The notes under the pieces were generated by a model. The model did no database searches. It had not been told where the DNA came from and saw only the letters and a list, made by a program, of their open reading frames with translations. The position numbers and the translations under genes were made by a program. Below, piece after piece: positions 4,359 through 64,000 of a DNA stretch of 64,000 nucleotides (its first letter is position 1; each line of letters begins with the position of its first letter). The stretch is from NCBI RefSeq assembly GCF_056746865.1, contig NZ_CM163382.1; one strand, given 5' to 3'.

Positions 4359-4402
4359 GACTGTCCGCGCTCTTTTTACGCTTAGTTACGCCACATCCGC
4401 CA

Positions 4403-7323: not shown

Positions 7324-7471
7324 CAAATTCTCCAGCAATGACAGTTAATGCGCCGATACATTCACAAATCATGCCAGTTTTTAATACACTGTTATTTAAG
7401 GAAATTAATTTCTGTAATGCAGGAAAAACGATGTCATCGACACTAGTGACGATGACATGTGATGACAATGT

Positions 7472-8482: not shown

Positions 8483-8741
8483 CATTTTCATCCCTTTACA
8501 CGCAATTAACGCAGTGTACTGCACCGTTTGCCGATTGTCCTTGCGCAATCGGCGGGAAAAATATTCAGGTGACCGGTTTCACAAATATAAAAAATGAACA
8601 ATTAACTCTCTTGCTTATTTAGTGACAACTATTCATGATTTTGTGAAACCGGTTTCTTAATTCCGTTTCAGCATCGGCATTTTTCCGTCACGTCGACTGA
8701 TAACAACTACATCTACCCTACTGATAACAGGATAAAATCCG

Positions 8742-11632
<2,891 letters not shown>

Positions 11633-45049: not shown

Positions 45050-46176
45050 GGGAGTTCTACCGCAGGGGCGGGGAACTCCAAGTGATGTCCATCATCGCAT
45101 CCAGTGCGTCCGGTTTATCCCCGCTGACGCGGGGAACACACATGAATGTCGGTTCAGACCGTGTTTTTACCCGGTTTATCCCCGCTGGCGCGGGGAACAC
45201 TGCCTCGGCGGCGGCTCTGCGCAACCGCGAAACGGTTTATCCCCGCTGGCGCGGGGAACACGTTAAACCGTGATGATCAGCAAAAGCTATTTCCGGTTTA
45301 TCTCCGCTGACGCGGGGAACACGTCAATAGGCGGCGTCCCGTAGCCGTCCCCTTCGGTTTATCCCCGCTGGCGCGGGGAACACTTGAAATGGTCCAGCAC
45401 TGCGACCGTCGGCCCCGGTTTATCCCCGCTGGCGCGGGGAACACGCTGGTGGCGCGGGCAAACGGAACAATCCCGCCGGTTTATCCCCGCTGGCGCGGGG
45501 AACACGCTAACCTATAACACGGAAAATCACACGCTAACGGTTTATCCCCGCTGGCGCGGGGAACACGGCCATTCCCCCAAGCAGACGCAGGAAGTTAACG
45601 GTTTATCCCCGCTGGCGCGGGGAACACCTGGATTTCACCTCAGCAAATGCTGGATGTGGCGGTTTATCCCCGCTGGCGCGGGGAACACCACCCCTGATAT
45701 TTTTGCCACCGTGGTTACTCCGGTTTATCCCCGCTGGCGCGGGGAACACAGAAATCAAACTCAGCGTGCAAATGGGGTAGCCGGTTTATCCCCGCTGGCG
45801 CGGGGAACACTTGCGTTATTTCTATCTGGTGAGTCGCGGCACCGGTTTATCCCCGCTGGCGCGGGGAACACGTATTTTTTATCGTCGCATGAGTCGCGGT
45901 AACCGGTTTATCCCCGCTGGCGCGGGGAACACTTCTGCCGCGCCAGCAAACGTATCGGCGGTCACGGTTTATCCCCGCTGGCGCGGGGAACACCCCAGGC
46001 CAAGCATTATATCCTGTGCGTCGTTCGGTTTATCCCCGCTGGCGCGGGGAACACACCAAGAAGCTGACGAATCAGCCCGACACGCACGGTTTATCCCCGC
46101 TGGCGCGGGGAACACCCAGTTTCATATGAGCCGCCGCGCTGGATCATCGGTTTATCCCCGCTGGCGCGGGGAACAC
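45050..46176 (-). CRISPR. type I-E CRISPR array: 18 full 29-bp repeats plus one degenerate terminal repeat, 18 spacers of 32 bp
   Basis: repeat cggtttatccccgctggcgcggggaacac at exact 61-bp period starting 45111 through 46148; variants at 45111 and 45294; degenerate copy 45050-45078; leader on the cas2 side. Confidence 0.97.
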
Positions 46177-46272: not shown

Positions 46273-47482
<1,210 letters not shown>

Positions 47483-47486
<4 letters not shown>

Positions 47487-48133
47487 GCCTCTGCTCCGGG
47501 TTTGATCAGCATCAGACCACAGCCGAACGCGCGGCTTTTGCCATACCCCTGGCTCAGACGTTGCAGAAATAACCCGGGATCGGTGACCGTAAGCATCCCC
47601 GTATAATCCACGCTACTGAACTGGATCAGTTGCCGGGAGTTTTCCCGCCACAGTTGCTGTTGTCGGTAGGCATCAACCGAGGTATCCAGCAGTGTAAAAC
47701 CGCTTCTCTCCCCCTGCGCTGCCAGCCAGTCCAGCGCCGCCTGTTGTTGATGCAACCAGACATCACTTCCTTCCGCCTGCCCCCTCACCTGCCGTTTCGC
47801 CTCCATCAGCAGATCGTGGCGCTTGCCCGCTTTACAGATTGTTGGATTCGCCCGCAGGTTGAAACAAAGTTGTTGTCCGGTACGCAGCTCGGGCACAAAT
47901 GACCGGCATTCGATGGTGAACGTTTCACTTTCTGCCGGGCGTTCCTGCGACAGTACAAAAAAGCGAAACGCGCCCTGGAGTTCTTCCCGACGATAAAGAA
48001 ATTGCCTTTCTTTGCCGCCAGGGAAGAGATCCCACAGCCACTGATGCATCACATATTCCCCGCGATCCACCAGATGCAGCAACTGCGCAGGCGAAAGCTG
48101 GCCGGTATGTAAGGTTATTCTTGAGAGGTACAT
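47483..48133 (-). CDS. cas6e: Cas6e (CasE) crRNA endoribonuclease, divergent I-E variant
   Basis: 216 aa from MYLSRITLHTG with RBS GGAGGA; conserved MYLS N-terminus, FNLRANP and C-terminal GKSRAFGCGL. Confidence 0.8.
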
Positions 48134-48837
48134 GGTTCCTCCTTGCTGAGCCACGGCCCCTGATTGACGGTGCGTTCCCCAAACAACCATTGCTGACGAT
48201 TTAAAGGAACATCCCGGCGGCGCAATATTTTGCTCGCGACCAGGCCGTCGTGCTCCCCTTCCCACCAGCATTCATCCTGAAGTTTCGGGAGTGCGATTTT
48301 CAGGTCGTGGAAATGCTCCTGATACTGGTGATATGCGTTACGTAAAACATCAGACGCGTTGCCTTCAAGCAGTAACGGCGCAAGTGGTAATGCCAGCGGA
48401 TGACTTTTTCGCCCCAGATAAAGCGGAAAAACTGGATGGCGTAAACCGCCCTGCAACTGTTCGAGGCTGTAAGGCGCATCGGCTGTTGTTGCCACCGCCA
48501 CCATCCACCAGGCGTCGGTGTAGTAGTCGCGCCGGGAGATAATCGCGCTCAGAAGATCAGGGTCGCTCAACTCTTCGCGACGGCTGAAATAACGCGCTTT
48601 ACGCACCTCTTTTGGCATCTGGATTGTGTGATAATCCCGTGCCCAGCGCGGGTTACGGCTGGCGCAAACCACCAGTGAATAGTGGCGGTTAAACACGTTT
48701 AATCGTTCGGTATCATCACGCCGAATCCCTACCCCGGCAGCCAGCAGCCCCAGCAATGCTGAGCGCGAAGGCAGTTCATGGGTATGACGCACTTCGCCCG
48801 CTCCAAACAAACATTTCTCAACGTCTACTGAAGTCCA
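48115..48837 (-). pseudogene. cas5e: cas5e (casD) lacking its 5-prime end
   Basis: frame reads ...HELPSRSALLGLLAAGVGIRRDD (Cas5 glycine-rich motif) but hits a stop at 48838-48840 with no ATG; upstream is AT-rich island DNA. Confidence 0.65.
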
Positions 48838-48969
48838 TCAAATCCACGAATATCAAGCCTTTCAGCCATTTTCATAGCTTATTAACGTCTACTCACAACT
48901 ACCAGAATCTACACACAGAAGTGTATAGTAATGCGTATAGGACAAAATTTATTTTTTGGAGCTATACAC

Positions 48970-50184
48970 ATGCTGCTTTCAGACCTTGCTATCAGGCGCG
49001 CGAAGCCGAAAGAAAAGGCTTATACACTCAATGACGGTAACGGGCTTTCGTTACTCATTGAGCCGAACGGCTCGAAAGGGTGGCGACTACGTTACAGATT
49101 TGCAGGAAAGCCCAAAATGTTGTCGTTGGGCGTGTACCCTGATGTGTCTCTGTCTGATGCCAGAGCGGCAAGGGATGAGGCTAAAAGGCTTCTTGCTGGT
49201 GGTATAAATCCAAGTGAGGCCAGAAAAGCTCAAAAGCGAGAACAGGCGAGCAAATTTGGCAATACTTTTGAGGGTATCGCTCGCGAATGGTATGAAAAGC
49301 GGATCGACAGGTGGTCATCGTCATACGCCGAGGAAATGATCGAGACGTTTGAAAAAGACGTTTTTCCGTACATTGGCGGCAGGCCGATCGCAGAAATTAA
49401 GCCAATGGAGTTGCTTGCGGTTCTCTCCCGTCTTAATGACCGTGGGGCGACCGAAAAATTGCGTAAGGTTCGCCAGCGATGCGGCGAGGTGTTCCGGTAC
49501 GCAATCATCACCGGACGCGCTGAATATAACCCCGCACCAGATCTGGCAAGCGCATTTGCTCCACACAAAAAAGAGCATTATGCCTATTTGAAGGCCGACG
49601 AACTGCCGGAATTTTTCCGCGTTCTTAATACGTACACCGGAAGCCAGATCGTCAAGCTGGGTATGCGATTATTGATTCTGACAGGGCTCCGGCCAGGGGA
49701 ATTACGACAGGCAGAATGGCAGGAGATCGATTTTGATAATCGTTTGTGGGAAGTGCCTAAAGAACGAATGAAGATGCGCCGTCCTCATTGTGTGCCGCTT
49801 TCAGAACAGGCGATCGCTATTCTGGAACAGTTAAAACACATGACGGGGCAGTATCAGTTTATTTTCCCTGGTCGAATCCAGCACAGTAAGCCGATGAGTG
49901 AAATGGCGATGAACGTGCTTATTCGTCGTATTGGCTATTCTGGGCGCGTTACTGGTCATGGGTTCCGGCACACGATGAGCACGATTTTACATGAGCAGGG
50001 CTATAACACCGCGTGGATAGAAACGCAGCTTGCACACGTTGATAAGAACTCAATTCGTGGCACGTACAATCATGCGCAATATCTGGACGGGCGGCGCGAG
50101 ATGCTCCAGTGGTACGCCGACTATATGGACTCACTGGAACAGGGCGGCAACGTGGTGCATGGCAAGTTCGGAAAATGTGGATGA
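48970..50184 (+). CDS. int: tyrosine recombinase, P4/CP4-57-type integrase
   Basis: 404 aa from MLLSDLAIRRAK; N-terminal arm-binding-like domain; C-terminal catalytic GHGFRHT and RGTYNHAQY. Confidence 0.9.
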   Translation: MLLSDLAIRRAKPKEKAYTLNDGNGLSLLIEPNGSKGWRLRYRFAGKPKMLSLGVYPDVSLSDARAARDEAKRLLAGGINPSEARKAQKREQASKFGNTFEGIAREWYEKRIDRWSSSYAEEMIETFEKDVFPYIGGRPIAEIKPMELLAVLSRLNDRGATEKLRKVRQRCGEVFRYAIITGRAEYNPAPDLASAFAPHKKEHYAYLKADELPEFFRVLNTYTGSQIVKLGMRLLILTGLRPGELRQAEWQEIDFDNRLWEVPKERMKMRRPHCVPLSEQAIAILEQLKHMTGQYQFIFPGRIQHSKPMSEMAMNVLIRRIGYSGRVTGHGFRHTMSTILHEQGYNTAWIETQLAHVDKNSIRGTYNHAQYLDGRREMLQWYADYMDSLEQGGNVVHGKFGKCG

Positions 50185-50312
50185 CTGGTTGAGTATACAG
50201 TAGTAGACTTTGAGCGACGAAAGAAAAAGCTGTGTCTAGGGTCGCTCCCGAAAAACCGTATACCTCGACGGGCTGGCACAGCCACTACAGTAGAGGACGC
50301 TGAGGTGTGCGT

Positions 50313-51110
50313 ATGATTGATATTCATGCCGAATTAAACGAATACAAAAAAGATTTTATTTCTTTACGTGAATTTCTTGAGGTCGTGCTTAAGGTCGCTG
50401 GTGATGATTATGATGTTTCAGATCTCATAACTTGGATACTCAGGAGAATAAGCGGAGAACATATCCGCCTGTACACAGTAAATGAATTTAAGCTGTTGGA
50501 ATCTTTTTGTAACCCGTATCGGGATGAATTTGATTATGATGTTCTTTATAGAAATCTGGATGCGGTTCGGAAACATGGTTGTTTACCTGGTGAGAGGGAT
50601 GAAAATGGTTTTCTGGTGTCCGGTTATTGGGAAGATCCCGAATTTGAGAACATTGGATTTATAAGGGGTGAAATTTTCGCAATTTTTCCCGATGTCCTTG
50701 ACGCGTTAACGAAGCTGGAAGGCGCTAACTCTTCTGAAAATGACGAGGTACAAGGACGCGATATTGAAAAGAAAGAGTTGCGTACAGAGGATGATTTATT
50801 ATCCCAAATCGCAATGCTGGAAAGAGAAAACGCAGAGTTAAGGGCAAGGATAGAGCAGTTAGAGCAAGAGCGCCCGATACACTTATATAAATACTGGGAT
50901 AAAGACCCATTAGCTAAGGCTATTGAGATTAGAAACAGAGAGTGGGCCAATTACGATCCAGAAAATGATTTTGCCACCAGGGGAAATCAAGAAGCGATAA
51001 CTAGGGAGCTTAAGCAGTGGGGGGCAAGTAATGCTCTTGCAACGCTCATAGAGAGGACTGCCTGCCCTATTAACCGAGACAACAGCCAAAAGAACGCAAA
51101 GCCGGATTAA
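50313..51110 (+). CDS. hypothetical protein (island cargo, unknown function)
   Basis: 265 aa from MIDIHAELNEYKK with RBS gagg; acidic, central coiled-coil-like segment (AMLERENAELRARIEQLEQE); no recognisable motifs. Confidence 0.6.
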   Translation: MIDIHAELNEYKKDFISLREFLEVVLKVAGDDYDVSDLITWILRRISGEHIRLYTVNEFKLLESFCNPYRDEFDYDVLYRNLDAVRKHGCLPGERDENGFLVSGYWEDPEFENIGFIRGEIFAIFPDVLDALTKLEGANSSENDEVQGRDIEKKELRTEDDLLSQIAMLERENAELRARIEQLEQERPIHLYKYWDKDPLAKAIEIRNREWANYDPENDFATRGNQEAITRELKQWGASNALATLIERTACPINRDNSQKNAKPD

Positions 51111-51125
51111 CGCACCATACCGCAT

Positions 51126-51270
51126 ACCCTGAGGGTGATTTACTGTTACCCTGAGGGTATTTTTTTATCTTCCCCGTCAATTTTACCATCACCCTTAGGG
51201 TAGATTTCCTCCCGATTACCATCACCCTTAGGGTTAATTTCCTTCCGGTAACCATTAGGCCTGAGGGTAT
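51126..51270. repeat. five copies of palindrome CCCT(G/T)AGGG within ~33-bp tandem repeats
   Basis: ccctgaggg 51127-51135 and 51149-51157; cccttaggg 51192-51200 and 51225-51233; cctgaggg 51260-51267; 33-bp units at 51184 and 51217. Confidence 0.6.
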
Positions 51271-51337: not shown

Positions 51338-51535
51338 ATGTCAAATACGCTTATTCGTTTAACAGAAGTTCAGCGTAGAACTGGATATAGCAAGGCATGG
51401 ATTTATCGCCTTATGGGGCAAGGTAAATTTCCTGCATCAGTTAAAATTGGCTCGCGAGCGATTGCTTTCGTTGAAAGTGAAATTGACGAATGGATCAATC
51501 AGCGTATTGCCGAATCACGCGGAACGGCTGCCTGA
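51338..51535 (+). CDS. alpA: AlpA/Vis-family HTH regulator (excisionase-like)
   Basis: 65 aa MSNTLIRLTEVQRRTGYSKAWIYRLMGQGKFPASVKIGSRAIAFVESEIDEWI; classic AlpA pattern. Confidence 0.8.
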   Translation: MSNTLIRLTEVQRRTGYSKAWIYRLMGQGKFPASVKIGSRAIAFVESEIDEWINQRIAESRGTAA

Positions 51536-51610: not shown

Positions 51611-52435
51611 ATGAAACTGCGAAAAACGCCCGTACAGGGGCAGGGCTTTGTTCGGCCTGAAAACCAGAATCTGCAAAATTTCGGCGAAATTATCCCGGTT
51701 ATTTCCGGCGTTATTGGCGGGCGTGAAGCCGCTGTTGTTAGCGCAAAAGCGTTACACAAAGCGTTGGGCGTGGGAAAAGACTTCTCTACATGGATCACTG
51801 ATCGTATCTCTGAATATGACTTCACCATTGGGTACGATTACTCAGTCCATAAAACAATTTCCCCAAATTTGGGGAAAAGCCCGAATGGCGAGGCTTACAG
51901 CAAGATTAAGCACTCTGGCAGACCCGGTAAAGACTATCTGTTAAGTGTCGGAATGGCGAAAGAACTGGCAATGATCGAACGCACCGAACAGGGCCGCGCC
52001 GTTCGTCAGTACTTCATCAAATGCGAGGAGGAGCTACACAAGGTAGCGCCTGTACGTTCCGCAGCGTTACGCCGGGAACTGAAAGCCCGTATCACCGTAG
52101 CCAGCTACTTTAAGCCAATGTGTGCCGCGCTGGAGGCGTACCGGGCTGAACTGGGTAAAAACACGCTCCAGCACCACTACACCACGGAAGCCAATATGCT
52201 GGCGCGTATCGTGCTGGGTGGCATGAATGCAAAACAGTGGGCGCAGGCGAACGGCATCACAGGCGAACCACGCGACCACATGAGCACGCTGCAGCTTGAG
52301 CACCTTTCTTACCTTGAGCAGAGCAATATCACGCTGATTGAGTTAGGCCAGGACTACCACCAGCGGAAAGCTGAATTAATTCGTCTTTCGCAACGCTGGT
52401 TAGCCCGCCGCATGGAGGTGAGCAGCCATGCGTAA
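51611..52435 (+). CDS. phage antirepressor-like protein (AntA/Rha-type)
   Basis: 274 aa; motif DFSTWITDRISEYDF...DYLLSVGMAKELAMI...RQYFI resembles antirepressor N-terminal domains. Confidence 0.55.
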   Translation: MKLRKTPVQGQGFVRPENQNLQNFGEIIPVISGVIGGREAAVVSAKALHKALGVGKDFSTWITDRISEYDFTIGYDYSVHKTISPNLGKSPNGEAYSKIKHSGRPGKDYLLSVGMAKELAMIERTEQGRAVRQYFIKCEEELHKVAPVRSAALRRELKARITVASYFKPMCAALEAYRAELGKNTLQHHYTTEANMLARIVLGGMNAKQWAQANGITGEPRDHMSTLQLEHLSYLEQSNITLIELGQDYHQRKAELIRLSQRWLARRMEVSSHA

Positions 52436-52985
52436 ACCTGTCTTTTATGCCGGTCGCACTGAAATCTCTGTCATTAAATTCGATGACATTCAGGTGCGCA
52501 TAGTGAGTATCAACGGCGAGCCGTGGTTTGTTGGCGCTGATGTGTGTGCCGCGCTGGAAATCAGCAATGTTACTGATGCCGTTTCAGTTCTGGATAACGA
52601 TGAGGTAATGACCCTAGCTTTAACCGAGGGTCATTCCGGTAAGCGTGGTGGTGCCAGAAGCTGGAATGTTGTCTCTGAATCAGGTTTCTACAAACTGATC
52701 GCCCGCAGCCGTAAAGCTTCCACACCAGGCACATTTGCGCACCGTTTCAGTAACTGGGTATTCCGCGAGGTGATTCCTTCAATCCGCAAAACGGGGGGTT
52801 ATGGTGTTCCGTTTGCCATGCTGAATGATTTCAGTAAACGTCAGGCTGCATATCAACAGGAAGCCAGCAAACGCGGTTACAGGTTACAGCAATGCAAAGA
52901 GGCAAAAGATGCACTGGAACGAGAAGAGCGGGCGCTATGGCGTAAATATCAGCCTGATTTTCTGGAGGGTGAAAGCAATGTGTAA
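52428..52985 (+). CDS. Bro-N domain protein (antirepressor family)
   Basis: 185 aa; VIKFDDIQVRIVSINGEPWFVGADVCAALEISNVTDAVSVLDNDE matches Bro-N signature; overlaps upstream gene. Confidence 0.7.
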   Translation: MRKPVFYAGRTEISVIKFDDIQVRIVSINGEPWFVGADVCAALEISNVTDAVSVLDNDEVMTLALTEGHSGKRGGARSWNVVSESGFYKLIARSRKASTPGTFAHRFSNWVFREVIPSIRKTGGYGVPFAMLNDFSKRQAAYQQEASKRGYRLQQCKEAKDALEREERALWRKYQPDFLEGESNV

Positions 52986-53153: not shown

Positions 53154-53351
53154 CTATTCCTGCTCTTTAGCATCGCCATACTGCGATGTTTTCCAGGTAT
53201 GCGATTCCATTTTTGTGCGCCTGTACTCTTTTAAGAACTTCTCAAGGACAAACGCACATGGCGCAAATCTTTCCTGTTCTTGTTCGCTTACCGCATTTTT
53301 GCGTTGTTTTTTCCTGGATGAGGATAATTTCTTTAATGATTTGTCAGTCAT
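53154..53351 (-). CDS. small basic protein, paralog of the adjacent 65-aa ORF
   Basis: 65 aa; shares C-terminal ...AFVLEKF...AKEQE pattern with neighbour; weak RBS. Confidence 0.4.
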   Translation of the reverse strand: MTDKSLKKLSSSRKKQRKNAVSEQEQERFAPCAFVLEKFLKEYRRTKMESHTWKTSQYGDAKEQE

Positions 53352-53408: not shown

Positions 53409-53606
53409 TTACTCCTGCTCTTTGGCCTTCCGGCGCTGTTCATATTTTAATTTGCGTCCACAGGCATCTAAGACCCATGCGGAAAAATTAGCACTAGGAT
53501 TAGTTAATTTTTCTTGTTCAACACTGGCATCAATCCCATCTATAAGCTCGTGCGGGAATCGAATATTTTTCTTTGCTGATTTGTTGTTTGTGTTTCCGCT
53601 AGACAT
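53409..53606 (-). CDS. small ribbon-helix-helix-like DNA-binding protein
   Basis: 65 aa; RBS gaggtg; KKNIRFPHELIDGIDASV resembles Arc/CopG beta-strand plus helix. Confidence 0.5.
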   Translation of the reverse strand: MSSGNTNNKSAKKNIRFPHELIDGIDASVEQEKLTNPSANFSAWVLDACGRKLKYEQRRKAKEQE

Positions 53607-53635
53607 TGGTACACCTCACTTAAATGGATTTGATG

Positions 53636-53711
53636 GGCGCACACAATACAGCAAAAAAAGTGAGAAGTTAAGTATTGACATGTGCGCACACATGATTTTA
53701 ATCTGTGCGCA
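53636..53711. promoter_or_regulatory. divergent promoter/operator region with three GTGCGCA(C) palindromes
   Basis: ggcgcac 53636-53642, gtgcgcac 53682-53689, gtgcgca 53705-53711; TTGACA 53675-53680 with TTTAAT 53697-53702. Confidence 0.45.
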
Positions 53712-53810: not shown

Positions 53811-54014
53811 ATGTTAAATCATACCACACACCCGCAAGGGCGGGACTCGCACAACCTGAATAAATACATCTGGCGTTTTATCGCCCTGAGCACCGCACAA
53901 CCACGCGTAATACACATCGAGGCCGCCAGCGAACAGGAAGCCCGTCAGCAATCCCCGGCTGGCTGCGTGATGGTATTTACTGCCCGCATCCGTCAGGGGG
54001 AATACTATGCGTGA
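53811..54014 (+). CDS. small hypothetical protein (possibly Icd-like)
   Basis: 67 aa from MLNHTTHPQG with RBS gagg; YIWRFIALSTAQPRVIHIEAASEQEARQQ; assignment by weak recall. Confidence 0.4.
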   Translation: MLNHTTHPQGRDSHNLNKYIWRFIALSTAQPRVIHIEAASEQEARQQSPAGCVMVFTARIRQGEYYA

Positions 54015-54264
54015 TGAACGATTTATTCTTCTGGAGCAAAAATTCAGTGAAGCGCCAAAAAATGAAATTGATGCTCTTTTGCATATCGCGAATATGCTAA
54101 AAGTAGCAACGTTCCTTATAGTTTCGAATCTGGAGCATGAAACGGCGTTAGATATACTGAACAGTGCTGTCGATTATTCTGAATATATTGCCGAGGATAA
54201 ATACAGGCAATTACCAGATTTGTTAGCCCATAAATATAAAGAAGAACCTCACACCGGGAAATAA
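54007..54264 (+). CDS. hypothetical protein
   Basis: 85-aa ORF overlapping neighbours on both sides (translational coupling). Confidence 0.5.
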   Translation: MRDERFILLEQKFSEAPKNEIDALLHIANMLKVATFLIVSNLEHETALDILNSAVDYSEYIAEDKYRQLPDLLAHKYKEEPHTGK

Positions 54265-54266: not shown

Positions 54267-54569
54267 ATGAAGAAGATTAAATTTACTGGCTTAAATGCCA
54301 GCGGACAGACTCACCCGAAAATCAGGATCGGGGATATTTTCCGGGATAAATATGGTGACAGCGTGGTTATTAATTCCGTGTATGAACGGCACATTACATA
54401 CCGCCGCGCAGGGTACGACTATGACTGTGTGATGCCCGTTCATCAGTTCCGGCGTGATTTTTCACTGGTATGTGCAGCACCACGCAGTAAGCCCACCAGT
54501 AAAGAGAAAGCACGGGCAAATATTCAGGTAATAAAGAACATGATTAACGCATTCAGGGGCAAGAAATGA
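54267..54569 (+). CDS. hypothetical protein
   Basis: 100-aa ORF; stop overlaps start of the 708-aa gene. Confidence 0.5.
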   Translation: MKKIKFTGLNASGQTHPKIRIGDIFRDKYGDSVVINSVYERHITYRRAGYDYDCVMPVHQFRRDFSLVCAAPRSKPTSKEKARANIQVIKNMINAFRGKK

Positions 54570-56692
54570 AACGCGCACCGAATTTAAAGCACCAGCCGAA
54601 AGACAAAATGACGGAGGTGATTATCTTTGCGGGTAGTGATGCCTGGGCACATGCGAAAGAGTGGAGCGAATGGGCCGGAAAGCATATTGCGGCAGATGAT
54701 ACACATCCAGTTATTCTTGGACCGGAACAACTGGCGAGTCTGGCAGACACGCAAATCATCGACAAAGGGCGCTATTACGTGCGCGTTTATCGTGCTGGTG
54801 AAATATCAGAGCAGCACCTTACACAGATAGCGACACTGCTTGCAGTGGCGGGTGTGAAGGAGGCGCGTTGCTACCGCAGCTTTGTTGATCAGCAGCCGGA
54901 GGACTGGACACCGCGCATGGCTGGACTGAAGGATGATGCGGAACGCGGTAACAGTCTGGTGATCAACCTTCCGGCGAAGACAAATTTCACCGGAAATTAT
55001 GATGACGAATTAAAGCCTCGTGTTGAAAGTCGCGTCGATGGTGTTTTCTGGGTAACGCCCAAAGTGGACAAGCAGTCAGGCGAAATTATCCGGCCTGAGA
55101 CGTGGTTATGTTCTCCGCTTGAACTACTGGGAACAGGAACAATCGGCAAAGAGCATTACCGCGTGATGCGCTGGAAAAAACCAGCAAACCATGAGGTCAT
55201 TACAATGGCGGTCCCGTGCGGAGGCATTGGTGACCGTGACGGCTGGCGGTTGCTGAAAGACCACGGCCTTAACGTGACGACCAACGGCAAATACAGGGCT
55301 ATCTTGGCTGACTGGATGCAGTTAAGCGGAAACCATGAGGAATGGCAGTTAAGCACAACAACGGGGTGGCATTTTGGTGCGTACATCATGCCGGATGGTT
55401 CGATCATCGGTGAATCAGAGAAACCCATCCTGTTTACCGGAAAAACTGCCGCTGTTAATGGCTATTCCGTGGCGGGAACAGCGGAGGGCTGGCGCGATAC
55501 CGTGGCACGGCTGGCTGGTGGTAATCCGTCCATGATGCTGGGTGTGGCGGTATCGCTATCTGCACCATTAATCGGGCTGGTGGGTGCTGACGGCTTCGGG
55601 GTTCATCTTTTTGAGCAATCATCAGCAGGTAAAACCACCACACAGAACATTGCATCAAGTTTATGGGGAGAGCCGGACGCGCAACGGCTGACCTGGTACG
55701 GAACGGCGTTAGGTATCGCCAACGAGGCCGAAGCACATAATGACGGGCTGTTACCCCTGGATGAAATAGGCCAGGCCGGAAACGCACGGGAGGTGTCCAC
55801 GTCAGCCTATACGCTGTTTAACGGTTCCGGGAAATTACAGGGGGCGAAGGACGGCGGCAACAGGGAGATAAAACACTGGCGTACGGTGGCAATCAGCACC
55901 GGAGAAATGGACGTTGAAACATTCCTCAAAACGGAAGGGATAAAAATTAAAGCGGGACAGCTTGTCCGTCTGCTTAACGTACCGATGGAAAAGGCCTCGC
56001 AGTTTCACGAATACAGCACCGGAAAGGCGCACGCAGACGCGTTAAAAGATGCCTGGACAGAAAATCACGGGGCGGCAGGTCGTGAGTGGGTTAAATGGCT
56101 GGCAGGCCACCAGCAGGAGGCAAAGGACGCGGTAAGGGCATGTCGCGAGCGGTGGCGCAACCTGATACCGGAGAGCTACGGCGAGCAGGTTCACCGTGTG
56201 GGGGAAAGATTCGCCGTACTGGAGGCCGCGCTTGTGCTTTCCGGTCATGTTACAGGCTGGGATGTTCAGGCGTGCCGTGATGCAGTTCAGCATAACTTTA
56301 ATGCCTGGGTGAAGGAATTCGGCACGGGCAACAGGGAATTTAAACAGATGGTTGAACAGGCTGAGGCGTTTTTGTCGTCGTTCGGGTTCAGTCGATACCT
56401 TCCCTATCCAAACAGCGACGAGCGTGATTTACCGATTAAAGACCTTGCCGGATACAGAAAGGGGAGTATCAGAAACGAAGATGACGAGTTCCGTTTTTAC
56501 ACGTTCCCGCATGTGTTTGAGGGTGAGATAGCACAGGGATTTAATCCGTCTCACTTTGCCCGCGCGTTGAGTGCAGCCGGAATGCTGGAAGCGGGAGGCG
56601 ACCGCCGTTACAAGAAAAAGGCGCTCGGCAGGATTGGCGGGAAGCAACATATTTTTTACGTGCTGATGTTCCAGCCTGAAGCAGAAGATTAA
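54566..56692 (+). CDS. putative replication initiator (primase/helicase-like P-loop protein)
   Basis: 708 aa; Walker-A-like FEQSSAGKTT; directly upstream of iteron cluster and SSB gene. Confidence 0.65.
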   Translation: MKRAPNLKHQPKDKMTEVIIFAGSDAWAHAKEWSEWAGKHIAADDTHPVILGPEQLASLADTQIIDKGRYYVRVYRAGEISEQHLTQIATLLAVAGVKEARCYRSFVDQQPEDWTPRMAGLKDDAERGNSLVINLPAKTNFTGNYDDELKPRVESRVDGVFWVTPKVDKQSGEIIRPETWLCSPLELLGTGTIGKEHYRVMRWKKPANHEVITMAVPCGGIGDRDGWRLLKDHGLNVTTNGKYRAILADWMQLSGNHEEWQLSTTTGWHFGAYIMPDGSIIGESEKPILFTGKTAAVNGYSVAGTAEGWRDTVARLAGGNPSMMLGVAVSLSAPLIGLVGADGFGVHLFEQSSAGKTTTQNIASSLWGEPDAQRLTWYGTALGIANEAEAHNDGLLPLDEIGQAGNAREVSTSAYTLFNGSGKLQGAKDGGNREIKHWRTVAISTGEMDVETFLKTEGIKIKAGQLVRLLNVPMEKASQFHEYSTGKAHADALKDAWTENHGAAGREWVKWLAGHQQEAKDAVRACRERWRNLIPESYGEQVHRVGERFAVLEAALVLSGHVTGWDVQACRDAVQHNFNAWVKEFGTGNREFKQMVEQAEAFLSSFGFSRYLPYPNSDERDLPIKDLAGYRKGSIRNEDDEFRFYTFPHVFEGEIAQGFNPSHFARALSAAGMLEAGGDRRYKKKALGRIGGKQHIFYVLMFQPEAED

Positions 56693-56715
56693 CTTCCCTG
56701 TGTGAGGTAAAAAGT

Positions 56716-56840
56716 TGCGGGTTATGCGGGTTATCCTGTGCATAAGTTAATTAACTGAATGATTAAAAAGGAAATTAATAACCCGCACGTAACCCGCAAA
56801 ACGGCAGTTATAACCCGCAAATGTGCGATTGTAACCCGCA
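56716..56840. repeat. iteron cluster TAACCCGCA (putative island origin of replication)
   Basis: direct copies at 56779, 56790, 56811, 56832 (spacing 11/21/21 bp) plus inverted tandem gcgggttat at 56717-56734. Confidence 0.65.
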
Positions 56841-56902
56841 AAATTTCACTGTAAGAGTGTAAACAAGCGTAACTATCACGTTAAAACCGGAGAACAAACA
56901 GC

Positions 56903-57328
56903 ATGACGGCGCAAATATCAGCTTACGGGCGGCTGGTGGCTGACCCGCAGTTAAAGACCACCAGCAAGGGCACACAAATGGCGATGGCGAGTATGGCGGT
57001 CCCCCTTCCATGCAATCAGACAGATGACGGAACGGCGACGATGTGGTTATCCGTCCTGGCGTTTGGCAGACAGGCTGACGCACTGGCAAAACACCACAAA
57101 GGCGAACTGGTGAGCGTGGCCGGTAACATGCAGGTGAGCTGGTGGACGGGCCAGAACGGCGAAACGAGGCAGGGATGGCAGGTTATCGCAGACAGCGTAA
57201 TCAGTGCGCGAACGGCGCGACCGGGCGGCAAAAAAGGCCAGCAGGGGCAGGCTACTGATGCACTGAACAGGGCAAAGCAACAGACAGGCCAGCACGATGA
57301 TCCGTACGGGGACGGGATACCGTTTTAA
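56903..57328 (+). CDS. ssb: single-stranded DNA-binding protein (SSB-like)
   Basis: 141 aa; OB-fold-like N-terminus, Gly/Gln-rich linker, C-terminal acidic tail DDPYGDGIPF. Confidence 0.7.
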   Translation: MTAQISAYGRLVADPQLKTTSKGTQMAMASMAVPLPCNQTDDGTATMWLSVLAFGRQADALAKHHKGELVSVAGNMQVSWWTGQNGETRQGWQVIADSVISARTARPGGKKGQQGQATDALNRAKQQTGQHDDPYGDGIPF

Positions 57329-57411
57329 TTCACAACAGCGAACAGAGTAATTACCCAGTGCGCCGTAAAGCCCCGTCCTTCAGGTCGGGGATATAAGGCG
57401 CGGTTTTCCAC

Positions 57412-57828
57412 CTAACTAGGTGTTTGCTGTTGTTCAATGTATTGGCGGATGATGGATATTGGCGCACCTCCGCAGCTACTGGCAAAATAGCTGGGACTCC
57501 ATAAAACGCCTTTGTAGTAATACCTGACTGCAATATCTGGTCGATCTCGTCGCAATAATCTACTCGATACGCCCTTGAGACTGTTCACCAGGGTGGATAT
57601 CGCCAATTTGGGAGGATAGTTAATTAGCAGGTGAACGTGATCTCGTTCTCCATCCATTTCAACCAGTTCAGCTTCAAAATCAGCACATACACTTGAAAAG
57701 TAAGTGCGTAGTTTTTCTATTGCGTCATGGTCAAAAATCTGGCGTCGGTACTTGGTAACAAAGACCAGGTGAACGTGCATCAGGAAGACACAGTGCCTTC
57801 CACGTCGGATATCGGTTTCTTTTTTCAT
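57412..57828 (-). CDS. tnpA: IS200/IS605 Y1 (HUH) transposase TnpA
   Basis: 138 aa from MKKETDIRRG; HUH motif HVHLL and catalytic Tyr region VLWSPSYFASSCGG. Confidence 0.85.
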   Translation of the reverse strand: MKKETDIRRGRHCVFLMHVHLVFVTKYRRQIFDHDAIEKLRTYFSSVCADFEAELVEMDGERDHVHLLINYPPKLAISTLVNSLKGVSSRLLRRDRPDIAVRYYYKGVLWSPSYFASSCGGAPISIIRQYIEQQQTPS

Positions 57829-57850
57829 AGGCCAAAGTATAATTTGGCAT

Positions 57851-59059
57851 ATGAAACGACTACAAGCTTTCAAATTCCAGTTAAGACCAAATGGAAAACA
57901 GGAGCGTGAAATGAGGCGCTTCGCGGGCGCATGTCGTTTCGTTTTCAATCGTGCTCTGGCGCTTCAGAATGAGAATCATGAGGCCGGGAACAAATATATT
58001 TCTTATGCAAAGATGACTTCCTGGCTGGTTGAATGGAAAAATGCTACTGAAACGCAATGGCTTAAAGATTCTCCCTCACAGCCATTGCAGCAGTCACTGA
58101 AAGACCTTGAGCGAGCCTACAAAAATTTCTTTCAGAAGCGTGCCGCTTTTCCCCGATTCAAAAAGCGGGGACAGCATGATGCATTCCGCTATCCGCAGGG
58201 TGTTAAGCTCGATCAGGAAAACAGCCGTATTTTTCTGCCGAAACTGGGCTGGATGCGCTACCGGAACAGCCGTCAGGTCACGGGTGTTGTGAAAAATGTC
58301 ACTGTCAGCCAGTCCTGCGGTAAGTGGTACATCAGTATTCAGACAGAAAGTGAAGTATCAACTCCGGTTCACCCTTCAGCATTAATGGTCGGGCTGGATG
58401 CTGGCGTGGCTAAACTCGCCACGCTGTCAGATGGCACGGTCTTTGAGCCTGTAAACAGTTTTCATAAAAACCAGAAGAAGCTGGCGAGACTTCAGCGCCA
58501 GTTAAGCCGCAAGGTTAAATTCAGCAACAACTGGCAGAAGCAGAAACGCAAAATACAGCGACTGCATTCCCGTATCGCAAATATCCGCAGGGACTACCTT
58601 CACAAAGTCACAACGACCATCAGCAAAAACCACGCAATGATAGTCATTGAGGATTTGAAGGTCAGCAACATGTCAAAGTCAGCCTCGGGTACGGTCAGCC
58701 AGCCGGGGCGCAATGTCCGGGCAAAATCAGGTTTAAACCGTTCGATACTGGATCAGGGCTGGTATGAAATGCGCCGTCAGCTTGAGTACAAGCAGCTCTG
58801 GTGTGGCGGTCAGGTGCTTGCTGTTCCGCCAGCGTACACAAGCCAGCGTTGCGCGTGCTGTGGTCATACAGCGAAAGAAAATCGCCTGTCACAAAGTCAA
58901 TTCAGATGCCAGGTATGTGGATATACAGCGAACGCCGATGTAAACGGCGCTCGTAACATTTTAGCGGCGGGGCACGCCGTTCTTGCCTGTGGAGGGATGG
59001 TGCAGTCAGGCCGCCCGTTGAAGCAGGAACCCACCGAAATGATTCAGGCGACAGCCTGA
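57851..59059 (+). CDS. tnpB: TnpB (OrfB) RuvC-like RNA-guided nuclease
   Basis: 402 aa; N-terminus [17 protein letters not shown]; RuvC region [15 protein letters not shown]; zinc finger [12 protein letters not shown]...CQVCG; [10 protein letters not shown]. Confidence 0.85.
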
Positions 59060-59118
59060 ACGTAGCAGGAATCCACGTCCTTCAGGGCGTGGAGGATGTC
59101 AAATATCAATGCGACGAC
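58900..59118 (+). ncRNA. predicted TnpB omega-RNA (tnpB 3-prime end, right-end hairpin, flanking guide)
   Basis: inferred from IS200/IS605 architecture only; right-end hairpin 59073-59092; guide would be about 16 nt from 59103. Confidence 0.3.
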
Positions 59119-59389: not shown

Positions 59390-59596
59390 GTGAATTGTAT
59401 TAACGACCTGAACACAGGCGATGTCAGAGGTGGTTCCGTTCATCTGGATGCACAGACCGTGATGCGCCTTAAGCAGTACAGAATCGACCATGTGAACAAT
59501 CACCCTGATCAGCCATTACCAGGCGTGGCGCAGATTGTCAGACATGCCGTAAACGCCTGGCTTAATCAGAATGGTTTTGCATCGGGGGGTGAGTAA
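59390..59596 (+). CDS. small hypothetical protein, first gene of cargo operon
   Basis: 68 aa; GTG start with RBS aagagg 8 nt upstream; AT-rich promoter-like region upstream. Confidence 0.45.
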   Translation: MNCINDLNTGDVRGGSVHLDAQTVMRLKQYRIDHVNNHPDQPLPGVAQIVRHAVNAWLNQNGFASGGE

Positions 59597-59692: not shown

Positions 59693-62224
59693 ATGCCAGT
59701 CGTACCAACAGTATCCGGACGTCAGGTTGAGAGCCGTGGAGTTCAGTCAGCAGGCTTGCAGACGTTTTCTCAGCCAGGTATTGGTGATGCTTTTGTTCGG
59801 GCAGGGGCAGAGGCAATTGATGTTTTTGGTCAGGCAAAACAGCGTGCCAATATTGCCTTGATTCAGGAGGCATCCCTTAAACTCAGTCAGATAGGCAGTG
59901 ATCTGCTGAATAATCCTGAAACAGGATTGCTTAACCTGAAAGGGAAAAATGCTATTGGAAAAGGCCATGAGTATACACAGCAGTTTGATGCTCAGATCGA
60001 ACAACTGGCTATGTCGCTGCCGGATGAACAGGCTCGTAATGCTTTCATGCAGCAGGCGCAGCAGCAGCGTATTCAGTTCGCTACGCAGGCCGGGAGGTAC
60101 GAGATAGGGCAAATAAATGCCTACGAAGAAGGCCAGTTTCAGGCGACACTGCTGAATAATGGTAAAAATGCCTCAGCATTATATGGCGACAACGCAGCAT
60201 ACATATTGGCTAATACGCAAACTTTCCAGCAAATTGAGGATTACGGTATTGCGCATGGCTGGAGCGACGAGCAAATCCAGGCCAAGAAAATCGAGTTTAA
60301 AGAAGCAACAGCAAAAGCAACTGCTCAAAATGCTATTGGAGCAAACTATCTTCAGGTAAGACAGCAAAATGGCGAGTTAAGCGATACTGCTGCTGGATCT
60401 CGCCGTGCTGTAGCAGATAGTGGCTCTTCCGATCGTACCCGCGGTATACGCAACAATAACCCCGGCAATCTTGAATACAGCAAAACTAATCCGTGGATTG
60501 GGCAGACTGGTGATGATGGTCGCTTTGCCAAATTCGAAACCCCTGAACACGGTATTCGCGCGCTTGGTCGCAATTTGCTGTCGTATCAGCGTCAGGGTTA
60601 TGACACCATCAGCGAAATAATTAATCGCTGGGCACCGGCCAGTGATGATAATAAAACTGATGCTTATATACGGGCAGTATGTGCTCAGCTCGGTGTAACT
60701 CCTGACCAGCCGCTTGACGCATCAAATCCTGACACACTGAAATCTCTGTGCAAAGCAATTATTCATCATGAGCAAGGCAGTCAGCCGTACAGTGATCAGC
60801 AATTGGCCGCTGGCGTTAGTGCCGCACTGGGGCTTTCTCAGCTACCGACAAAAAATAAACGTTATACCGGTGTAGCCTGGTTCGATGCTTTAAGTGAATC
60901 AGATCAGGCCAGCGTGTTGCGACAGACGGATGCATTAGCCAGACAGCAGCAGGCTGAATATAGAACGATGCTCGAAAGCCGGGTTCGCGATGCAACGGCT
61001 GCGTATATGCGTGGCGTTGAATTTCCTAACCCGCCTGGTGAGGGTGAGTTCATTGCTGCTTATGGTGTCAGAGAAGGAAACCTGCGATATACCGAGTTCA
61101 GAAATTTGCAGATCGCCGGACAGTATATAGGCTCTTTCCGCAACATGCCGACAAGCAGCATTACCGCATATGTTGAGCAATTACGCCCGGATACTGGTGA
61201 GACAGGGGAGGGGTATGCGTCTCGTGCGGAGTTATTCGACCGGGTATCGGCGGCAGCCACGAAGGTAATAACCCAGAGGCAGAATAATCCGTTTAGTGCA
61301 GCGGTGGAAATCGGAGCCTATAAGCCGATCACCAGCAACAACCCTGACGACATCACTGCCGAGGTGGCTAACCGTTTCTCGTCGCAGGAAAGCTTACGCG
61401 CGTTGGGAATTAATGCCCCACTCCTCAACAGTGAAGAGGCGGCTGCGCTGGCACAGCAGGTGCGCGGCACTCAGAACGTTGACCAGACAATTAAACTGTT
61501 GCAGAGCATGGGGGAGAAGCTGCCTGCGCCAGCAATACGGCAGGTGGCATCTGTAATTGCTCCGAACAGTGCGGCAACAGCCTATTCTGCGCTGCTGCTG
61601 GGCACGCCGGATAACCAGTACGACAACACCAGGCCGACGATCCCATATAGTCAGTTCATCGGGTATAAGCCGACGATGAACAAGTACGACGTTGCAAAGG
61701 TTATTCTTTCCGGCGACCAACTACTGAATCCGACGAAGGCCATGAAGAATGCGGGCATAACTCCGGTACAGTTGCCGAGCGAAGATAAGATGAAAGACGC
61801 TTTCGACGAACAGGTAGGTAATGCATTTGCCCGTAACCCGCAGTTACGCCAGATCAGTTATAGCCTTTTCAAAGCCGCTTACGCAGGAATAGCTTATCAA
61901 TCTGGTGATGCCTCTACGGTAAGAACCAGTATGCCTGATACAGACATTGTAGCTGATGCCGTGAAGTATGCTACTGGCGGTATATACAATGGTTTTAATG
62001 GCGGCGACGTTGTAATGCCTTTTGGCATGGATAAATCTACTTTCAAAGATCGCTATACCACATCTGCGAAACAAGCACTGAAAGATGCCGGACTTAACGT
62101 AAATGCAGTGTCAAATTTCACGCCAGTTAATATCGGCAATAACCGGTATCGGCTTGTAAATGGTAGCGGACGCTGGGCAACAGATCCCAGAACCAATAAA
62201 GCTATTGTCGTGAGGGTTGAATAA
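59693..62224 (+). CDS. large hypothetical protein (843 aa), Q/A-rich
   Basis: strong RBS aggagg; conserved-looking central block IRNNNPGNLEYSKTNPWIGQ...FAKFETPEHGIRALGRNLLSYQRQGYDTISEIINRWAP; no P-loop; function unknown. Confidence 0.7.
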   Translation: MPVVPTVSGRQVESRGVQSAGLQTFSQPGIGDAFVRAGAEAIDVFGQAKQRANIALIQEASLKLSQIGSDLLNNPETGLLNLKGKNAIGKGHEYTQQFDAQIEQLAMSLPDEQARNAFMQQAQQQRIQFATQAGRYEIGQINAYEEGQFQATLLNNGKNASALYGDNAAYILANTQTFQQIEDYGIAHGWSDEQIQAKKIEFKEATAKATAQNAIGANYLQVRQQNGELSDTAAGSRRAVADSGSSDRTRGIRNNNPGNLEYSKTNPWIGQTGDDGRFAKFETPEHGIRALGRNLLSYQRQGYDTISEIINRWAPASDDNKTDAYIRAVCAQLGVTPDQPLDASNPDTLKSLCKAIIHHEQGSQPYSDQQLAAGVSAALGLSQLPTKNKRYTGVAWFDALSESDQASVLRQTDALARQQQAEYRTMLESRVRDATAAYMRGVEFPNPPGEGEFIAAYGVREGNLRYTEFRNLQIAGQYIGSFRNMPTSSITAYVEQLRPDTGETGEGYASRAELFDRVSAAATKVITQRQNNPFSAAVEIGAYKPITSNNPDDITAEVANRFSSQESLRALGINAPLLNSEEAAALAQQVRGTQNVDQTIKLLQSMGEKLPAPAIRQVASVIAPNSAATAYSALLLGTPDNQYDNTRPTIPYSQFIGYKPTMNKYDVAKVILSGDQLLNPTKAMKNAGITPVQLPSEDKMKDAFDEQVGNAFARNPQLRQISYSLFKAAYAGIAYQSGDASTVRTSMPDTDIVADAVKYATGGIYNGFNGGDVVMPFGMDKSTFKDRYTTSAKQALKDAGLNVNAVSNFTPVNIGNNRYRLVNGSGRWATDPRTNKAIVVRVE

Positions 62225-64000
62225 TGTCTGATGTTTTTTCTTTGGCTCCAGAAGGTCAGGCATGGATTGACGACAAAACAGTTGCCAACCCAGCAAGGCC
62301 AGAAGACTACGATCCGACTCCCTTCCAGGGTTCAGGTACTGCACTTTTGAGCGGCGTGGCGGAGGGGGCTCTCGGTCTCGCGCAGTCTGCCGTCGGATTC
62401 AGCAAGCGTCTGATTAGCGATCCGGCATTTACCGCAGACGTGGCACCGACAGTTAATATTTTTCGGGAGATGTTCCCTGATGCTGACAAAACACTGAATG
62501 ATACATACGACACGATCGGAAAACAGTTACAGGATGCCCGCAGCTATGTGAAGCCTGATGCAGGCAGCCAGGGAATGGCGGCTGAGGTATTAAATGAGCT
62601 TGGTAAATTTGTTCCTGCAATCGGAACAACTATGTTTGGTGGTCCGCTCATCGGCGCTGCTACAGCCTTCAGTTCTACGTATGAGCAGTCCTATCAGGAT
62701 TTTAAAGGGAAGGGAGTAGACGAGGCTACAGCGCGTAACCTGGCAACGCAGCAGAGCCTTTTCAATGCTGTGGGTATGGCCTTACCCGCTGCCGTCGGCA
62801 CCACACTGGCAACGCGCATTGCCTCAGGTGTGGCAATCAACACCGGATTCGGTGGACTGAACCGTTACTCAGTAGGCGCAACACTGGAGGAAAAAGGCTA
62901 CACGGAGATGGCAAAACAGTATCGGGTATTTGACGGTCAGGCGATGTTAGTCGATGCCGTTTTAGGCGGGGTCTTTGGTGGCGTTCATCACCTGACTACC
63001 CATAATAACCATGATGGTACAGAGTCGAACATTTCTGCAGAAGAAATAAAATCAACTTTTGGTGAACATTATCAGCAATCTCCTGATGGTAACATTGAGT
63101 CAATGGTTCGTGATTTATCTGATTCAGGAGTAATAGAACTTATTAATGAACCAGCAATAAAAAATAGTGATGGAGAAATACTTCTGAATAAAGGTCATGT
63201 GACAGTAGCTTCCGGAAAAGAACCAATAATAAGAATAAATATTAATGGATTAAAAGACCATGAAGAACTGTTAGAAACCCTTCATCACGAGGCGCTTCAT
63301 CTTGAGCAGCGCCATTACCCTGACTGGAAGGCCAGAAAGCTAGCTAATGCTGTACTTAAATCTGCAAACAAGCATTCTGACTATCCTGAATTTGCATATG
63401 GGATGTCACAATATTATGAATATAAGAAAAGGGGTGAGTACCCTGAAACATATCCTGAGTGGTTGTACGCTGAAGAAGTTGCCGCACATGCAGTAAATCC
63501 ATCTCTAAAGACAAGCGTTTCATCATGGGAAAAAATTATTTCAGGTTTTAAAGCCTATATATTCAGATACAGTGGTATTCAGGTTGGAACCGTTACACCT
63601 GAGCAGTTACGGTTACTCGTAAGTATGCGTCTTCGCAATATGAAACTGGAAGCCGCAGTAGAAAAAGTTTTTGGTATCCGGGCGAGGGAAAGAATAAAAC
63701 CAAGCGATATTGATGCAGCCCACATTTTGAATGAGGGGCTTCATTACGATATTGAATCGTCACCAGTGCTTCATACCAGCAATGAGAGCATCAACAGCCA
63801 TGTTGACGCCATGGATGAAGCATACAGGCAACTTAATGATGGTCAGCCTGTAAATGTTGGGGGGATGGCGCGAGGGCTTGATGGTCCATTGCGATCAGAT
63901 ATATCTGATACTTACCAAGAGCAATACCATGAAATACAAAAGGTTTTTGAAGAAAATGGTGTCAGATACGAAACATCATCAGAGCCAATTAGTGAATCGC
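62224..64000 (+). CDS. large hypothetical protein (partial, at least 592 aa), HExxH motif
   Basis: taATG overlap with previous gene; frame open to window end by manual translation; Gly-zipper hydrophobic segments; LHHEALHLE. Confidence 0.65.
   Translation, partial: MSDVFSLAPEGQAWIDDKTVANPARPEDYDPTPFQGSGTALLSGVAEGALGLAQSAVGFSKRLISDPAFTADVAPTVNIFREMFPDADKTLNDTYDTIGKQLQDARSYVKPDAGSQGMAAEVLNELGKFVPAIGTTMFGGPLIGAATAFSSTYEQSYQDFKGKGVDEATARNLATQQSLFNAVGMALPAAVGTTLATRIASGVAINTGFGGLNRYSVGATLEEKGYTEMAKQYRVFDGQAMLVDAVLGGVFGGVHHLTTHNNHDGTESNISAEEIKSTFGEHYQQSPDGNIESMVRDLSDSGVIELINEPAIKNSDGEILLNKGHVTVASGKEPIIRININGLKDHEELLETLHHEALHLEQRHYPDWKARKLANAVLKSANKHSDYPEFAYGMSQYYEYKKRGEYPETYPEWLYAEEVAAHAVNPSLKTSVSSWEKIISGFKAYIFRYSGIQVGTVTPEQLRLLVSMRLRNMKLEAAVEKVFGIRARERIKPSDIDAAHILNEGLHYDIESSPVLHTSNESINSHVDAMDEAYRQLNDGQPVNVGGMARGLDGPLRSDISDTYQEQYHEIQKVFEENGVRYETSSEPISES

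Follow-up and report, generated by a model that had tools for sequence, protein, structure and literature searches.

The window analysed in this work is a 64,000-nt stretch of the E. coli chromosome (contig NZ_CM163382.1 of assembly GCF_056746865.1). It contains a genomic island in which two consecutive genes, antA and bro-N, had been described from the sequence alone as antirepressor-type genes. The question raised by this locus is whether the two proteins counteract repressors, as the names of their families imply, or serve the island in another way. We consider it fairly probable that the antA-bro pair forms the Bro zone in a phage-inducible chromosomal island (PICI) of the EcCIMP1 type, and that the products are DNA-binding regulators made from the AlpA operon rather than proteins that sequester a repressor.

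The antA and bro-N genes

The sequence-only reading had placed two overlapping genes at 51611-52985, and open reading frames (ORFs) were found at exactly these positions:

51611-52435, plus strand: gene 1 (antA), ATG start, ORF of 274 aa
52428-52985, plus strand: gene 2 (bro-N), ATG start, ORF of 185 aa

The two ORFs overlap by 8 nt. At the junction, which reads GGAGGTGAGCAGCCATGCGTAA, a GGAGG sequence is located 7 nt 5' of the bro-N ATG, and the TAA stop codon of antA follows just 3' of that ATG. Because a strong Shine-Dalgarno sequence for bro-N lies inside the end of antA and the genes overlap, translational coupling of bro-N to antA is suggested. When compared with orthologues of approximately 70% identity, antA gave a ratio of nonsynonymous to synonymous substitution rates (dN/dS) of approximately 0.3, and bro-N likewise; judged by this ratio, both genes are under purifying selection. 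The same two coding sequences are annotated by RefSeq in near-identical islands of other strains. We conclude that antA and bro-N are genuine genes and not a chance pair of ORFs.

Domain searches assigned an AntA and a Bro-N domain to the products and no unrelated domain. In the AntA-type protein, Pfam AntA (PF08346) was matched at aa 43-125 over the full profile (1-68) with E 7e-21 and 75 bits (gathering cut-off 27). The protein had been named AntA/Rha-like; the first half of this name was borne out, whereas the second does not apply to the protein itself, which gave no Rha domain match of its own, and only relatives occupying the same slot 3' of the regulatory gene alpA join a Rha N-domain to the same C-terminal domain. 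The predicted Bro-N protein was confirmed as such by a match to Pfam Bro-N (PF02498) at aa 22-117 (E 5e-18, 65.9 bits, gathering cut-off 25.6, full profile 1-96). The two proteins have no mutual similarity, so that paralogy was rejected, and sequence comparison with solved structures gave no significant match for either of them.

The island as a probable EcCIMP1-like PICI

The island was compared with the criteria for Gram-negative PICIs of Fillol-Salom 2018 and with the four-zone model of PMC10111431, which comprises an integration, a Bro, a replication and a late zone. The features relevant to this comparison are the following:

48931-50184, plus strand: tyrosine integrase with Arm-DNA-bind_3, Phage_int_M and Phage_integrase domains, reading toward the island interior
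50229-50296, plus strand: int-alpA RNA motif directly 3' of the integrase stop codon (Rfam RF02996, 46.9 bits, gathering score 35.8)
50307-51110, plus strand: 267-aa coiled-coil protein, between int and alpA
51126-51234: four ACCCTnAGGGT palindromes 5' of alpA, candidate operators
51338-51535, plus strand: AlpA-family regulator (Phage_AlpA, E 2e-19)
53154-53351, minus strand: 65-aa hypothetical gene, convergent with antA-bro
53409-53606, minus strand: 65-aa YlcI/YnfO (DUF3950) protein, candidate small repressor of the island switch
53675-53703, plus strand: TTGACA promoter-like site with the perfect palindrome CATGTGCGCACACATG in its spacer, as read from the sequence
53811-54014, plus strand: Icd-like protein (NCBIfam NF033153)
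54007-54264, plus strand: 85-aa hypothetical protein
54267-54569, plus strand: DUF4222 protein
54566-56692, plus strand: DUF927 primase/helicase-type replication protein of ~707 aa (phrog_1139, E 4e-174)
56715-56843: iterons TAACCCGCAA(AA), 4-5 copies in both orientations, between primase and SSB
56903-57328, plus strand: single-strand DNA-binding protein (SSB)
57355-59102: IS200/IS605-family element, with tnpA (Y1 transposase) at 57412-57948, minus strand, and tnpB at 57851-59059, plus strand
59390-59596, plus strand: 68-aa hypothetical protein opening the late zone

The integrase stands at one end of the island, is transcribed inward and is followed by alpA; the Bro zone (AntA plus Bro-N, 51611-52985) lies between the integration and replication zones; and the island has its own DUF927 primase, with adjacent iterons of putative origin function and an SSB. 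The window matches the Gram-negative and helper-embedded PICIs of PMC10111431 zone by zone, including a late zone of captured helper genes. The C4/isrK-type immunity RNAs described for some Bro zones in that work were not detected in the window (no Rfam match for C4/isrK at E<=0.1). Nor does the island resemble P4-like satellites, which are marked by sid, psu and delta and by the C4/isrK CI RNA: none of these three genes was found among the products of the window ORFs or in an annotated complete copy of the island.

The closest described system is EcCIMP1, a 19,963-bp PICI of E. coli MP1 whose excision occurs only in the presence of the podophage Kapi1, the phage that also transduces it (Pick, Stadel and Raivio 2025, PMC11773190). 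In those Gram-negative PICIs that have been characterised, AlpA serves as master activator, through which the helper signal acts; alpA of EcCIMP1 is helper-induced and required, the 'antirepressor' is strongly conserved among EcCIMP1-like elements, and the late genes resemble the DNA-transfer proteins of the helper (PMC11773190). Over aa 20-269 the AntA-type protein of the window is 74% identical to this 'antirepressor' (EcCIMP1 sequence taken from the MP1 genome), and few genes of the EcCIMP1-like family are as strongly conserved as antA. The two islands also share int, alpA, DUF4222, the Icd-like protein, a primase of the DUF927 type and a PerC-like gene; in both, the late zone consists of podovirus genes for internal or ejection proteins, and the size is ~19-20 kb. 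EcCIMP1 differs from the window island in its location at tRNA-Thr, in the genes that flank antA (one of 143 aa in front, an Ash gene behind), in a second alpA and in the lack of a Bro-N gene. The genes of its late zone are of the P22/Kapi1 kind, with DUF2824, a 'DNA ejection protein' and a transglycosylase of 906 aa, unlike the epsilon15 gp15-17 type of the window.

The satellite or PICI-like lifestyle proposed by the sequence-only reading is supported by the four-zone order and because AntA is orthologous to a gene of the experimentally validated EcCIMP1. On gene content and order, the window island is best read as an EcCIMP1-like PICI, a new member of a satellite kind that has already been described.

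Several elements of the layout appear to be bound to particular modules. The ACCCTnAGGGT palindromes occurred only in islands with the same int-alpA module, and the TAACCCGCAA iterons only in islands with the same ~707-aa DUF927 primase; the iterons probably mark the replication origin. A second, similar copy of the CATGTGCGCACACATG palindrome is present at 53633-53645, 47 nt upstream, and this palindrome is a candidate operator of the rightward icd-primase operon. The tnpB product of the IS200/IS605 element contains OrfB_IS605 and Cas12f1-like TNB domains. In intact copies, the 983 bp that this element replaced hold genes for a ProQ/FinO-like protein and a hypothetical one, as well as the 5' portion of the gene for a PerC-like product.

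Architecture of the two proteins

In the AntA-type protein a disordered leader (aa 1-20) precedes a winged-helix-like AntA domain (aa ~30-125), from which a helix of 55 residues (126-180) leads to a C-domain (187-273) that forms a helical bundle. No Pfam model was found for the C-terminal domain (about aa 150-274). An exhaustive HMMER search with this domain yielded 281 representative clusters. Of 100 full-length members, 36 had an AntA N-domain, 35 a Rha, 19 a KilA-N and 2 a Bro-N domain. Relatives of antA were present in 807 of the 5426 complete E. coli genomes (~15%). Since only one of the 703 phage records matching the AntA-type protein covers at least 80% of it, the full-length architecture is characteristic of satellites rather than of phages. 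Derivation of AntA from an epsilon15-like phage was rejected, as the sole full-length phage homologue belongs to an unrelated Edwardsiella phage. The window AntA is itself a chimera, combining an EcCIMP1-type N-domain (86%) with a C-domain of the glyU lineage (96%), and it has its 5' leader in common with Rha-type genes.

When the full-length AntA model was compared with the PDB, chains of DdrC from Deinococcus radiodurans were the only significant neighbours by three methods. DdrC and the AntA model are built in the same order: at the N-terminus a β-hairpin plus winged helix-turn-helix of Dachshund/Ski type, then a long helix as linker, and a helical bundle at the C-terminus. The template modelling (TM) scores against PDB 7qvb, 7udi and 8u0g were 0.36-0.43 at 15-18% identity, and sequence similarity was marginal (E 0.2). 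A weak motif, NR.VLG...RD.LT..QL, is common to the two proteins. In a profile-profile comparison aimed at DdrC homology, a 39-aa fragment was too short and a padded query gave no match. Unlike AntA, DdrC is chromosomal and damage-induced, binds lesions without sequence specificity, and was described as lacking homologues outside Deinococcus.

This resemblance opens the possibility that AntA is no gene regulator at all and that it binds ends or nicks of DNA, whereby the linear DNA of the satellite would be protected, annealed, circularised or compacted once injected or in the course of replication and packaging. DdrC is able to close linear DNA into circles, to anneal strands and to compact DNA (PMC9303277), and a satellite packaged by the headful mechanism would have to recircularise on entry. 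Against such a role stand the marginal sequence similarity and low TM-scores already given; moreover, exchangeable N-domains of the sequence-specific type (AntA, Rha, KilA-N) suit regulators better than a structure-specific binder, and expression from a helper-dependent alpA operon would come too late for incoming DNA. We regard a DdrC-like function of this kind as very improbable.

The C-terminus of the Bro-N protein contains a conserved helical hairpin (aa ~129-174). Its structural model was of moderate confidence, with a predicted local distance difference test (pLDDT) score of 71, and weakly resembled the Ski/Dachshund and APSES DNA-binding folds (E 0.01-0.07). Its orthologues share 68-73% identity, and conservation extends along the entire protein, the C-terminal ~65 residues included. 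The orthologues are encoded directly 3' of alpA in capsid-encoding PICIs located inside prophage terminase genes, and in Klebsiella PICIs without AntA.

A further alternative is that the proteins exclude superinfecting phages, the helper included, for example by binding and silencing injected DNA. In a PADLOC search the AntA C-domain matched the candidate family PDC-S22 (E 4.6e-9); EcCIMP1 contributes to immunity against its own helper (PMC11773190); and CapR of the PLE satellites, a Bro-network protein that represses a helper gene, offers a precedent, as cited in PMC10111431. However, PDC-S22 and the other PDC families are candidates by genomic association, a criterion that would flag any core gene of a satellite, and the Bro-N protein had no PADLOC match. 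The fixed position of the pair in the regulatory zone right after alpA, which is not a cargo hotspot, argues for a core regulatory role instead, and an exclusion function seems improbable.

Variability of the slot after alpA

Across the relatives examined, the slot 3' of alpA is filled by one to three Bro-network genes. The pair AntA plus Bro-N was found in the window and in approximately 20 of the 5426 complete E. coli genomes. Strain F11 carries Rha, AntA and Bro-N, strains cq9 and ETEC1747 carry AntA alone, and EcCIMP1 and H10407 a 143-aa gene plus AntA. Bro-N occurred as second gene in 1-2 of 59 related loci from IMG/VR. In these loci the subtype of the C-domain goes with the backbone of the island (alpA, icd, DUF4222, ProQ, PerC), and the N-domains vary. 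Late zones of at least three types (epsilon15, P22/Kapi1 and DUF2213) accompany the antA family; therefore at least the C-domain is not helper-specific. A link between the AntA N-domain type and the late-zone cassette was also sought in the 59 loci, and no consistent pattern emerged; the A1 type goes with podovirus cassettes, but this association is confounded by lineage.

One uncultivated viral genome of IMG/VR, 2541047875_000009, contains the antA-bro pair, the primase and the epsilon15-type late genes (98-99% nucleotide identity) behind a different integrase and ylcI region. It follows that the Bro, replication and late modules move between integration modules.

Modularity of this degree could also mean that the genes are selfish, shuffling Bro-network cassettes, akin to the DNA-binding modules associated with homing endonucleases, which persist by their own mobility and bring the island little benefit. 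The chimeric window AntA (86%/96%) with its Rha-type 5' leader and the sporadic occurrence of Bro-N as second gene would agree with such a view, as would the link to nuclease-related domains noted in PMC10111431. On the other hand, no nuclease domain was detectable in AntA or in the Bro-N protein, both genes are under purifying selection, and the slot is occupied in essentially every island examined. We consider this explanation extremely improbable.

Regulators or antirepressors

The gap between alpA and antA is 75 nt long, and the two genes are on the same strand. No promoter-like site and no plus-strand terminator-like site was found in the gap. Because of this short same-strand gap without a terminator, together with the translational coupling, antA and bro-N are likely to be expressed within an AlpA-controlled early operon. 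In the mechanism that we favour, a helper phage would induce alpA, and AlpA would in turn drive antA and bro-N. The AntA and Bro-N proteins would each consist of an N-terminal winged-helix-like DNA-binding domain and a helical C-terminal part that would probably serve dimerisation, and would bind DNA of the island or of the helper, possibly the palindromic operator of the icd-primase operon, or helper promoters as CapR does. By their description, CapR and Eta, satellite proteins of the Bro network that act on helper or satellite gene expression, can be likened to the window pair. Co-transcription with alpA, DNA binding, dimerisation and the targets are elements of this mechanism that we infer.

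The classical alternative is that AntA and/or Bro-N inactivate, by protein contact, a CI-type repressor of a helper prophage or a repressor of the island, leading to induction of the helper or release of the replication operon. Both proteins belong to PHROG families annotated 'anti-repressor Ant' (E 2e-36 for the AntA-type and E 5e-55 for the Bro-N protein). The N-domain of the Bro-N protein is 50% identical to N15 gp30, annotated 'anti-repressor Ant', and that of AntA ~45% identical to 'antirepressor' genes of Stx phages. The stacking of one to three genes in the slot (AntA and Bro, or Rha, AntA and Bro in F11) would suit a repertoire directed against several repressors, and the neighbouring YlcI/YnfO protein with the palindromic operators could be the repressor system targeted. 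A satellite that derepresses its helper has a precedent in P4, whose epsilon protein is a true antirepressor, although one outside the Bro network.

The annotations, however, are names transferred by N-domain homology only. The likeness to classical antirepressors (P22 Ant, P1/P7 Ant, N15 gp30-type, Stx-phage Ant) is confined to N-terminal Bro-N/AntA domains of 45-50% identity, whereas the C-terminal parts differ: neither window protein contains ANT/KilAC or P22_AR_N/P22_AR_C, and Pfam at E<0.01 gave AntA and Bro-N alone. Control differs as well. There is no Arc/Mnt- or LexA-type regulation of the window pair, in contrast to the LexA box/SOS control of Tum, AntC (N15) and the Gifsy antirepressors; a scan for LexA boxes (CTGT-N8-ACAG) detected none upstream of alpA or antA, and the 20 one-mismatch matches window-wide compare with 17 expected by chance. 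Instead the genes stand in a satellite, 3' of alpA, which in EcCIMP1 is switched on after helper induction. The AntA C-domain is conserved across islands with differing late zones, and presumably differing helpers, whereas CI repressors are highly diverse, and the structural neighbours of the proteins are DNA binders. Taken together, repressor inactivation appears unlikely, and 'antirepressor' is a family name that, used as a functional label, is unproven and, on the structural models, probably misleading.

Several observations weigh against the regulator reading. The ACCCTnAGGGT palindromes were considered as AntA or Bro-N sites and rejected, since their distribution follows that of the int-alpA module and not that of Bro-N or of the AntA N-domain type. 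The Bro-N model is only moderate and its fold matches are weak, the TM-scores to DdrC are low, and DdrC is a non-specific DNA-damage binder and not a transcription factor. Some true antirepressors (P22 Ant, N15 gp30-type) also have Bro-N-like domains, and a DNA-binding fold is compatible with antirepression by protein-protein contact. Finally, co-transcription with alpA is deduced from one kind of evidence, the spacing of the genes.

Integration into cas5e

The window island is not at its usual site, tRNA-Gly (glyU), but in cas5e of the type I-E CRISPR-Cas operon (48115-48810):

48792-48805, plus strand: attL, the junction on the left of the island, where the final 14 nt of tRNA-Gly (CTTCGCCCGCTCCA) meet a truncated cas5e

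The end of tRNA-Gly (...TTCCCTTCGCC|CGCTCCA) and intact cas5e (...GCACTTCGCC|GGGGG) have a 7-bp crossover core, CTTCGCC, in common, and in the window the junction reads ...GCACTTCGCC|CGCTCCAAACAAAC. A tRNA as integration site in the window was rejected, as ARAGORN found no tRNA there. Because strain ETEC1747 carries a related island in the same cas5e site with both junctions visible, the event is an integrase-type insertion at a secondary att site with the 7-bp core; on the same two junctions, the alternative that sequence between glyU and cas5e had been inverted or deleted was rejected. The copy of the island in strain fS10a is located at glyU, with ~19.1 kb between tRNA-Gly and the TTCCCTTCGCC repeat; the window ends inside the island.

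The insertion separates cas3-casA-casB-cas7e from cas6e-cas1-cas2. The cas1e gene (46563-47486, minus strand) has an in-frame stop at codon 199, annotated likewise in the 100%-identical strain 118UI; therefore the adaptation module was already inactive. The adjacent CRISPR array comprises 18 repeats (45111-46176), and comparison of its spacers with the island, EcCIMP1 and epsilon15 gave matches of chance length only.

The late zone and the likely helper

The island had been thought to carry no virion genes. This proved incorrect, since its late zone encodes colinear homologues of the epsilon15 internal-virion proteins gp15, gp16 and gp17, with 74-89% identity across the block, the first two of which lie in the window:

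59693-62224, plus strand: epsilon15 gp15 homologue, 843 aa
62224-64000, plus strand: epsilon15 gp16 homologue, running off the window

Over its full length the 843-aa protein shares 79% identity with gp15, an internal component of the virion that has a lytic-transglycosylase region. The two ends of the gp16 homologue are 83% and 72% identical to epsilon15 gp16, whereas the middle (nt 63055-63660, aa 278-479) has been replaced by a segment without similarity. This segment contains a motif of the HExxH type, HEALH (63286-63300), and had no Pfam match; the protein, which is injected together with the DNA, may thus have acquired a metalloprotease-like insert. Where the island is intact, a homologue of gp17 (89%) comes next, the order gp15-gp16-gp17 being colinear with epsilon15. 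The epsilon15-type block occupies ~7.3 kb of the ~19-kb island (2239-9586 in the fS10a sequence examined), and the fS10a island has only these three internal-virion genes; Gram-negative PICIs are taken to span ~10-20 kb between att repeats and to lack a full complement of genes for virion and lysis.

As judged from these homologies, the satellite has captured ejection or core proteins of an epsilon15-like podophage. EcCIMP1 carries P22/Kapi1-type equivalents and the window island epsilon15-type ones, which suggests that the ejection proteins of such satellites correspond to the helper that they use. Because of its late-zone genes, the likely helper of the window island is an epsilon15-like (Uetakevirus) podophage. 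Epsilon15-type portal and capsid genes were found in 546 of the 5426 E. coli genomes, and at least 2 of 15 island-bearing genomes also had them among the matches listed (UID2309220007 and ETEC1749), a lower bound on co-residence that carries no enrichment statistic.

Implications

The satellite reading of the island is right in outline and is already covered by published descriptions, and the gene pair is largely ordinary. The analysis assigns the window island to a satellite family known from earlier work, and two assumptions are corrected: the absence of virion genes from the island, and the function of the two proteins as antirepressors. The captured epsilon15-like ejection/core proteins, and the insertion in cas5e that splits a type I-E CRISPR-Cas operon, are of added interest.

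A more far-reaching extension, which we consider rather unlikely, is that the slot 3' of alpA accommodates an exchangeable array of DNA-binding modules directed at the helper, in which the C-domain would be a DdrC-like, dimerising, DNA-gripping core coupled to the island backbone, and the N-domains and stacked genes such as bro-N would choose the helper or island promoters. If so, the composition of the Bro zone would help to determine helper range, and DdrC, supposedly a repair factor restricted to Deinococcus, would be a domesticated member of a phage and satellite protein network. For the family as a whole, the domain swaps and the DdrC-like model lead to a concrete hypothesis, namely that a dimeric DNA binder with an exchangeable specificity domain is encoded by a gene family present in ~15% of complete E. 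coli genomes.

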